A stretch of 38,532 bases of DNA, taken from the IMG/VR virus record IMGVR_UViG_3300045988_167100. One strand, given 5' to 3'. Under the pieces are notes generated by a model that did not search any database, was not told where the DNA came from, and saw only the letters and a list, made by a program, of their open reading frames with translations. This stretch comes from a virus. The position numbers and the translations under genes were made by a program. The stretch's first letter is position 1. Every line of letters begins with the position of its first letter. This document shows positions 1-198 of the stretch, one piece after another.

Positions 1-118
1 TCATAATATCATTCTTATGGGGTAAGGGGAACTATACCCTTTTTTATGTAATATAGCTATTATTATAACTATAAGCAAAAGGACGAATGAAAAAACTCTC
101 GTTTTTTCACACGCCCTT
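1..118. repeat. Left terminal inverted repeat (ITR-L), 118 bp, exact reverse complement of 38415..38532
   Basis: Compared by eye: tcataatatcattcttatgggg...cacacgccctt equals the revcomp of the window end with no mismatch. Identity breaks at 119/38414. Contains an A/T-rich hairpin gaaaaaac-tctc-gttttttc at 89..108. Confidence 0.95.
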
Positions 119-198
119 CAATGAATGCTGTTCGCTGGTTGACCAGGAACATTGTCTTATATAGTGCCGGTCAACGGCTTTGGTTTGTGCATTCATTG
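119..198. other. Nested stem-loop directly abutting ITR-L, function unknown
   Basis: Outer inverted repeat caatgaatgc (119..128) / gcattcattg (189..198). Inner pairing ttgacc(a)gg with ccggtcaa. No ORF. Confidence 0.5.

Follow-up and report, generated by a model that had tools for sequence, protein, structure and literature searches.

Oppositely oriented copies of an IS1182-family insertion sequence very probably underlie the terminal inverted repeat of a gut Lachnospiraceae prophage contig

Sporulation genes can be interrupted by intervening elements that carry large serine recombinases, as is the case for SPbeta in spsM and skin in sigK. Insertion sequences (ISs) of the IS1182 family are about 1.3-1.9 kb in length and possess a single ORF and short terminal inverted repeats (ISfinder). 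Two members of this family, IS1272 and TnSha1, insert into hairpins or terminators without duplicating the target, and the target inverted repeat is partly deleted or "replaced" (PMC4923244, PMC5678879). Several insertions into the same hairpin have been found, in either orientation; prophages are among the targets, the element lying there downstream of the last cargo gene (PMC4923244, PMC5678879). Transposition of the IS1272 type is described as a non-replicative 'cut-paste-and-cut' process, by which hairpins are replaced (PMC5678879).

The stretch of DNA analysed here (hereafter, the window) is a viral contig of 38,532 nt with 38% G+C, the genes of which lie mostly on the + strand. Positions 1-118 are the exact reverse complement (100%) of positions 38415-38532; position 119 is a mismatch and position 120 a match, so that the inverted repeat reaches 120 bp with one mismatch, and both lengths given in the initial annotation were reproduced. 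A perfect inverted repeat of 118 nt cannot have arisen by chance. Neither a direct terminal repeat nor circular permutation was found in the window. By an exact-protein lookup, the window was recognized as the contig ena:ERZ27229634:k119_228027 (38,534 bp) less one base at each end; therefore, the repeat of the original contig is 119 nt in length, which equals the k of the assembler. In MEGAHIT naming, the prefix k119 stands for a final k of 119.

In IMG/VR, the tip of the repeat has a single occurrence, on the contig L001 (IMGVR_UViG_3300029185_000004), in which a 525-aa ORF (10962-12539) stops 4 nt before the 118 nt and the contig ends 14 nt beyond them. The 525-aa protein is a transposase, scoring 276.2 bits with the NCBIfam model NF033551 (cutoff 270) and containing DDE_Tnp_1_6 and DUF772 domains. 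This contig belongs to a different phage, and within L001:7827-12661 the IS lies near the end of a truncated 986-aa tape-measure-like ORF. Further IS loci were obtained from a genome scan (15 loci) and a metagenome scan (120 loci), and the IS end occurs at more than 100 unrelated loci; the sources are all human-gut or Lachnospiraceae-type, except for a "Flavobacteriales" MAG, which contributed two contigs. The most complete copies are 1,769-1,789 bp in size, and derivatives of 1,459 bp, 1,585 bp and 595-597 bp are present as well. One of the derivatives, from Roseburia inulinivorans DSM 16841 (L016:7298-7894), is reduced to 597 bp by internal deletion; it has kept both ends and lost the transposase gene, and is MITE-like. 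The two ends of the IS are distinct, IRL reading GGGGCTGTGAAAAAAG and IRR (reverse complement) reading AAGGGCGTGTGAAAAAAC, and they form an imperfect inverted repeat of about 16 nt. In its size, its single ORF and its short terminal inverted repeats the IS agrees with the IS1182 family. Judged by sequence, the arms of the repeat in the window are the transposase-distal (IRR) end of this IS of about 1.79 kb, which is common in gut Lachnospiraceae.

The first of the two IS copies, copy A (1..116, + strand), consists of the IRR-terminal approximately 115 nt downstream of the transposase stop and is 100% identical to L001:12544-12661 and to L002; it is directed outward from the IS interior, which is cut at position 1 by the contig end, and closes with the terminus of the IS, ...CACACGCCC. 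Copy B (38417..38532, - strand) consists of the same IRR-terminal approximately 115 nt in the opposite orientation and is part of the perfect reverse complement of 1-118. The transposase gene lies outside the window. The junction of copy A is ambiguous within 114-118, where the target also reads CCTT, and that of copy B within 38415-38417. The TT at 117..118 is target sequence or ambiguous between target and IS; the IS-free sites read ...GTAAGGCC^TTCAATG on the left and ...TGTAAA^GACC on the right. That the perfect repeat continues for 2-3 nt beyond the terminus of the IS is explained by the C(C)TT which the two targets have in common at the junction (117-118 and 38415-38416), and T was observed at +1 to +3 in 73-83% of 114 unique IRR flanks. 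The flanks of independent copies diverge straight after ...CACACGCCC(TT); therefore, position 118 is the true junction between IS and target, and the same IRR end is present at both ends of the window.

It had been proposed in the initial annotation that the outer limit of the repeat was set by a de Bruijn assembler working with k=119 and that the true repeat was longer. Comparison of assemblies of the same phage bears out this proposal. The IS is retained to a depth of 119 nt at both ends of the MEGAHIT contig k119_228027, 55 nt (IRR) at the left end in the BRIT16-1 scaffold L031, 54 nt (IRR) at the right end in the BRIT16-1 scaffold L019, and 27 nt plus 2 shared bases in the Logan contig L020 (k=31). 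The depth of repeat kept at a contig end equals the assembler k and shifts with it, and the full repeat is the 1.79-kb IS. The contig stops at the first k-mer that lies wholly inside the sequence common to both junctions, so its limit at position 1 is a stop of the assembler, while position 118 is a real junction of IS and target. Since two other samples, assembled differently, show the same joins, both flank-IRR junctions are real. Both insertions are presumably carried by the dominant genome, as a mixed population would break the contig at the flank and not k into the IS.

The part of the window between the two arms belongs to a temperate prophage of the siphovirus type, the host of which is a gut Lachnospiraceae bacterium. 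By Pfam, a leftward lysogeny and cargo operon (408..3234, - strand) encodes an S24/HTH repressor (2491-3234), an Mrr-type endonuclease (1145-2473) and a DUF3800 protein (408-1091). The rightward genes encode a Rep initiator, a PcfJ-like protein, a DUF4417 protein, a terminase with its small and large domains in one ORF, a portal, a minor capsid protein 2, a P22-type coat protein, a tape measure, a holin and an amidase, and the set closes with three low-G+C cargo genes. The last of these (37644..38399, + strand) encodes a 251-aa protein of unassigned function and is followed in IS-free relatives by terminator R, the att site and a 5' fragment of the host gene cotJC. No integrase, protelomerase, family-B polymerase or terminal protein was found in the window by 30 ORF scans covering 28 ORFs. 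A Mu-like transposable phage was considered and rejected, as the 721-aa and 445-aa proteins are PcfJ-like and unassigned, respectively, and not MuA and MuB. When both ends were searched against a phage collection, only short and distant matches were returned (Roseburia phage Jekyll, and MT837199 for a 105-nt element), and exact searches with the flanks in IMG/VR gave no match, the phage lineage being absent there.

Several other sequence features were observed in the body. An 18-nt palindrome, AGTTGCACCGGTGCAACT, is present in five copies (1123-1146, 12949-12972, 17858-17881, 30770-30793 and 35739-35762), two of them exact, in intergenic as well as coding positions, and is a candidate binding or modification site. 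A full-length match to the Rfam family SpF41_sRNA (66.3 bits, gathering threshold 52) is located at 17731-17838 (+), just upstream of the pre-terminase ORF. In the early region, a ribosome-binding site and start region, GAGAGGAGATGAGTAAAGATGAAGAAA, occurs three times (3949-3984, 4736-4771 and 5298-5333), and a 59-nt segment is repeated with 92% identity (5120-5178 and 5886-5944); these repeats suggest duplicated small genes.

Hundreds of contigs of IS-free relatives, up to 664 kb in length, were found to carry integrated prophages, which interrupt the sporulation gene cotJC (Mn_catalase). The gene is split into a 72-aa 5' fragment on the right (L021:12160-12433) and a 134-aa 3' fragment on the left, and the intact homologues in L128 and L144 join both halves with an overlap of about 20 nt. 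Next to the 3' fragment, the IS-free relatives encode a 527-aa protein with Resolvase and Recombinase domains, i.e. a large serine recombinase (3' fragment and recombinase, L044:11262-13293). On the right side, the order is the 251-aa gene, ...AATAAAAAATGAATGTAAA^GACCAATATAGACAGATATTGGTCTTTACATTTTTTCC, the 72-aa cotJC 5' fragment, cotJB, cotJA and feoAB. Ten long contigs (L021-L030) match the window as far as ...AATGAATGTAAAG and then read ACCAATAT... where the window has the IS; the site ...AATGAATGTAAA^GACCAATAT...hairpin...cotJC 5' fragment is identical in all ten. On the left side, in the orientation of the window, host genes are followed by the 134-aa cotJC 3' fragment, the 527-aa recombinase, a 288-nt spacer, ...AAAAAAGACCTTACATATGTAAGGCC^TTCAATGAATGCTG... 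and DUF3800, identically at seven of seven loci; the site itself reads ...hairpin GGCC^TTCAATGAATG... in 7/7 contigs, and farther out come the recombinase and the cotJC 3' fragment. The gene order in L037-L052 is repressor, Mrr, DUF3800, a 577-nt spacer, the 527-aa recombinase and the cotJC 3' fragment. In the IS-free relatives, the two IS sites are accordingly separated by about 1.95 kb on the excised circle, an interval that includes the att site and the recombinase. The missing integrase, to which the initial annotation had drawn attention as bearing on how the phage is maintained, is thus a gap of the assembly: the 527-aa large serine recombinase lies just beyond the left end in the IS-free relatives.

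The relatives vary in some other respects. The cargo between Mrr and the recombinase in L037-L052 is DUF3800, Bro-N plus Abi_2, T5orf172 plus Bro-N plus Abi_2, or nothing. Some contigs of relatives have a second serine recombinase element where cotJC is expected. A 338-aa tyrosine recombinase of the XerC/D type is encoded between the tail-fibre region and the holin in some of them (L025:6990-8006, L026:6990-8006 and L029:389-1405), and the window is without it.

The presence of a terminal inverted repeat and the lack of an integrase within the window are the only points that would favour genuine physical ends, either protein-primed with terminal inverted repeats or covalently closed as hairpin telomeres. 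We assign practically no probability to this explanation: many unrelated loci carry the repeat as the end of a mobile IS, and its length tracks the assembler k; no family-B polymerase, terminal protein or protelomerase is encoded, while terminase, portal and Rep initiator are; and the relatives are integrated prophages with a serine recombinase. The doubt already voiced about hairpin telomeres and protein-primed ends was therefore justified, the required proteins being absent and terminase and portal being present.

The sequences at the two sites in the IS-free relatives are both capable of forming hairpins. Hairpin R has an 18-bp stem (-22.3 kcal/mol, z = -7.7) followed by a T-run, and hairpin L, on the - strand, has an 11-bp stem and a U-run (z = -4.3). 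From their position and shape, hairpins L and R are predicted to be the intrinsic terminators of the leftward lysogeny operon and of the last rightward gene, respectively. The sequence AATGTAAA (38409..38416, + strand) would be the left-over 5' arm of terminator R, the IS lying 8 nt into the 18-nt arm. These two sites were the IS-free comparators for hairpin targeting, and at both of them the insertion is in a hairpin stem. Target duplication was assessed in 29 unique full copies of the IS: abutting direct repeats were absent in 24, 1 nt in length in 2 and 2 nt in length in 3, and none (0/29) exceeded 2 nt. The consensus of the flanks (114 unique IRR flanks and 31 IRL flanks) is A-run|IRL...IRR|T-run, which fits replaced terminators. 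Palindromic flanks of the IS were also considered and dropped, as the complementarity was 5.41 of 12 positions against 5.13 +/- 0.24 in a re-paired control and resulted mostly from the A-run/T-run composition.

Insertion at one hairpin in either orientation was also observed. The contig L020 represents the same phage with 99.6% identity, and its left flank meets IRL at the very nucleotide at which that of the window meets IRR. At three more loci (the pairs L165/L002, L074/L101 and L094/L092), flanks of 383-600 nt that are 89-100% identical are joined to IRR in one member and to IRL in the other, again at the same nucleotide. Two other origins of such pairs were examined and set aside: flipping of the IS in place, as the other flanks of L092 and L094 are unmatched and repeated insertion is the simpler reading, and, for L020, recombination between IS copies, which cannot move a flank from IRR to IRL. 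The opposite flanks of L092 and L094 do not correspond, so that these loci are rearrangement breakpoints as well.

Instead of two independent insertions, a single insertion followed by intramolecular replicative transposition might be envisaged, in which the IS attacks the other hairpin and inverts the 38.3-kb body. The textbook outcome of such a duplicative inversion is a segment between inverted IS copies with the same IS end inward. This is exactly the geometry of the window, and all four junction sequences would be the same as with two independent insertions; the orientation of the body relative to sre/att, for its part, is unreadable from short contigs. Duplicative inversion nevertheless appears unlikely, for two independent insertions are easy for an IS that targets terminator hairpins, the left site has been taken at least twice, and transposition of the IS1272 type is non-replicative (PMC5678879).

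We next consider the octamer AATGAATG, which is present at 120-127 and 38405-38412 (+) and in three more copies on the + strand and three copies on the - strand of the window. The initial annotation had described it as a direct repeat abutting the inverted repeats; the octamer is indeed present just inside both of them, but it does not abut them symmetrically, being offset by 1 nt on the left and 2 nt on the right. The left octamer (120..127, + strand) follows terminator hairpin L immediately on its 3' side in every IS-free relative, and the right octamer (38405..38412, + strand) occurs in all ten relatives L021-L030, where TAAAGACCAATATAGACAGATATTGGTCTTTACATT follows it and the 5' arm of hairpin R starts with its last 4 nt. 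As read from these relatives, AATGAATG is pre-existing phage sequence at both sites. Its interpretation as a target-site duplication has to be abandoned, since each IS-free site already has its own copy and the IS makes no duplication of more than 2 nt. Where related genomes were expected to have one empty site with a single AATGAATG, they have two sites about 1.95 kb apart with an octamer at each. When random junctions were simulated on the sequence of the window, two of them shared a direct 8-mer within 12 nt with p of about 1e-3. Such a coincidence is unusual but possible, and our model accounts for it only as chance.

The left octamer is also part of a non-coding element of 87 nt (117-203), located between DUF3800 and terminator L, for which a three-way fold is predicted (-28.9 kcal/mol, z = -3.1). 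It makes up the 5' half of the predicted closing stem and pairs with GCATTCATT at 189-197 (AATGAATGC/GCATTCATT). The element is 83% identical in MT837199 (L017:2062-2166), an unrelated fecal phage scaffold, with one compensatory change from G-C to A-T.

These results bear directly on the model put forward in the initial annotation, namely that a single foldback, MITE or IS element with inverted repeats of at least 118 bp had inserted once into a circular genome and duplicated AATGAATG. A direct octamer beside inverted repeats would agree with it, and the 597-bp deleted derivative L016 shows that MITE-like forms occur. However, a single insertion needs a contiguous ...AATAAAAAATGAATGCTGTTCGC..., whereas in IS-free genomes the flanks are about 1.95 kb apart with the recombinase and the att site between them. 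Moreover, each IS-free site has its own octamer, the octamers are offset by 1 nt and 2 nt, the IS makes no duplications, and long inverted repeats are a feature of no IS copy: the 118-nt segment was found at both ends of none of them, including the 597-bp L016. The IS-free sites thus refute the single-element model, which we regard as scarcely credible. The initial annotation was correct in assigning the arms to an IS-like element with an interior outside the window; it was not correct in taking them for the two ends of one such element, because both arms are the same IRR end, at loci about 1.95 kb apart in IS-free genomes.

What lies outside the window was approached through the outer, IRL-side junctions. 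Both IS copies are presumably complete, with their IRL ends facing the recombinase/att side and the hairpins partly replaced, and the content between them would be that seen in IS-free relatives. If the hairpins were replaced, the IRL-side junctions would read ...TTTCAACAAAAAA|GGGGCTGTG and GGAAAAAATGTAAA|GGGGCTGTG. A metagenome scan for hairpin L joined to an IS end gave no match; with replacement of the hairpin, as described for IS1272, this pattern would in any case have been the wrong one. IMG/VR was scanned twice for the expected junctions of an A-run with IRL, and nothing was returned. By the route of the serine recombinase, the closest cluster P0001 and a short-contig variant, P0003, gave 10 loci, none of which contains IS sequence.

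Another conceivable arrangement is a head-to-head IS pair, joined IRL to IRL or flanking no more than a remnant, with the recombinase and att deleted, in a defective or non-integrating phage. No contig linking the body of this lineage to a recombinase was found, and all nine of the contigs encoding the exact 251-aa end protein (9/9) are 50 kb or shorter, as such a pair would have it. But the IS breaks assemblies, so short contigs are expected regardless; the recombinase is always kept in IS-free relatives; and an IRL-IRL junction is specifically predicted by no mechanism. A head-to-head pair is thus very unlikely in our judgement.

Taken together, we conclude that two inverted copies of a hairpin-targeting IS1182-family element very probably bracket the prophage body, and that the contig was cut k into each of them. 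The relatives of this phage are prophages that integrate into cotJC by means of a large serine recombinase. In the present lineage, two IS copies of about 1.79 kb would have landed in two intrinsic-terminator hairpins, the copy by position 119 in the terminator of the leftward lysogeny operon and the copy by position 38414 in the terminator after the last rightward gene, in opposite orientations and each with its IRR end toward the phage body. Like IS1272, the IS would use a hairpin as target, make no duplication and enter one hairpin in either orientation. With the IS in multiple copies in the sample, the de Bruijn assembler with k=119 would have been blocked, so that the contig ends k into the IS on both sides and this stop would produce an apparent 'terminal inverted repeat' of length k. 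The gap between the copies would be about 1.95 kb on the excised circle, and the serine recombinase gene would lie in it together with the att site and what is left of the hairpins; in an integrated phage, the host chromosome would be part of the gap as well. AATGAATG would be ordinary phage sequence that lies by chance next to both hairpins.

These results have some practical consequences. Perfect terminal inverted repeats on viral contigs are often read as the mark of a complete linear genome; when the length of the repeat equals the assembler k and the arms are IS ends, the repeat is not to be taken as a genome end. The present contig is an incomplete prophage body, from which about 2 kb including the integrase is missing. 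It is a slim possibility that the inverted IS pair could make the recombinase/att module of about 1.95 kb, or the 38-kb body, a composite-transposon-like or invertible unit. If so, integration modules might be swapped between phages, or the body might be flipped or uncoupled from the sporulation-linked excision at cotJC, and AATGAATG by both hairpins could mark the borders of exchangeable modules.

The mobile element described here is of a kind already known, its behaviour is that reported for its family, and the assembly effect is likewise familiar; the new instances are this IS and the double insertion around the integration module of a cotJC-splitting prophage. Compared with hairpin-telomere plasmid prophages of the N15 type, the phage differs in that no protelomerase was found and the repeat is a mobile IS end; compared with protein-primed linear phages, it differs in that no family-B DNA polymerase or terminal protein was found and the relatives are integrated. 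Its relatives resemble SPbeta and skin: the IS-free prophages likewise split a sporulation gene and carry the 527-aa recombinase at one end, although the host is a member of the Lachnospiraceae and not a Bacillus, and the likeness concerns the prophage rather than the repeat.

The arrangement of the two ISs recalls that of composite transposons such as Tn10 and Tn5, in that two inverted IS copies flank the 38.3-kb body or, conversely, the recombinase/att module of about 1.95 kb. In contrast to Tn10 and Tn5, there is no duplication marking a joint insertion, and the IS-free sites are two separate insertion points; the window includes about 115 nt of each copy, and movement of either segment as a unit would be hypothetical. 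The ends of the contig are like those produced by the collapse of repeats in de Bruijn contigs, which are called 'ITR' by viral-contig checkers: such contigs likewise stop exactly k into a multi-copy repeat, and two inverted copies yield a perfect terminal inverted repeat of length k, as in the window. The difference from a pure artefact of this kind is that the two junctions are real IS insertions, and the artefact is confined to the length of the repeat and its 'terminal' position.

Among known elements, the gut IS is close to IS1272 of Staphylococcus and to TnSha1, a derivative of IS1272, with which it shares the transposase family (NCBIfam, Pfam), a size of about 1.8 kb, one ORF and imperfect inverted repeats of about 16 nt. 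Hairpin targeting, the lack of duplication, insertion at one site in both orientations and landing in prophages are common to them as well. The gut IS differs in its Lachnospiraceae host, in its sequence, and in that the integration module of a single prophage has an inverted copy on either side; the junctions compared are those on the phage-body side, and partial replacement of the hairpin, as with IS1272, is presumed. Without calling for a new principle, the behaviour of the IS1272 type thus extends to an abundant IS of human-gut Lachnospiraceae that repeatedly enters phage terminators, and recognition of this hairpin-targeting IS should be useful for reading the IS-driven decay of prophages.
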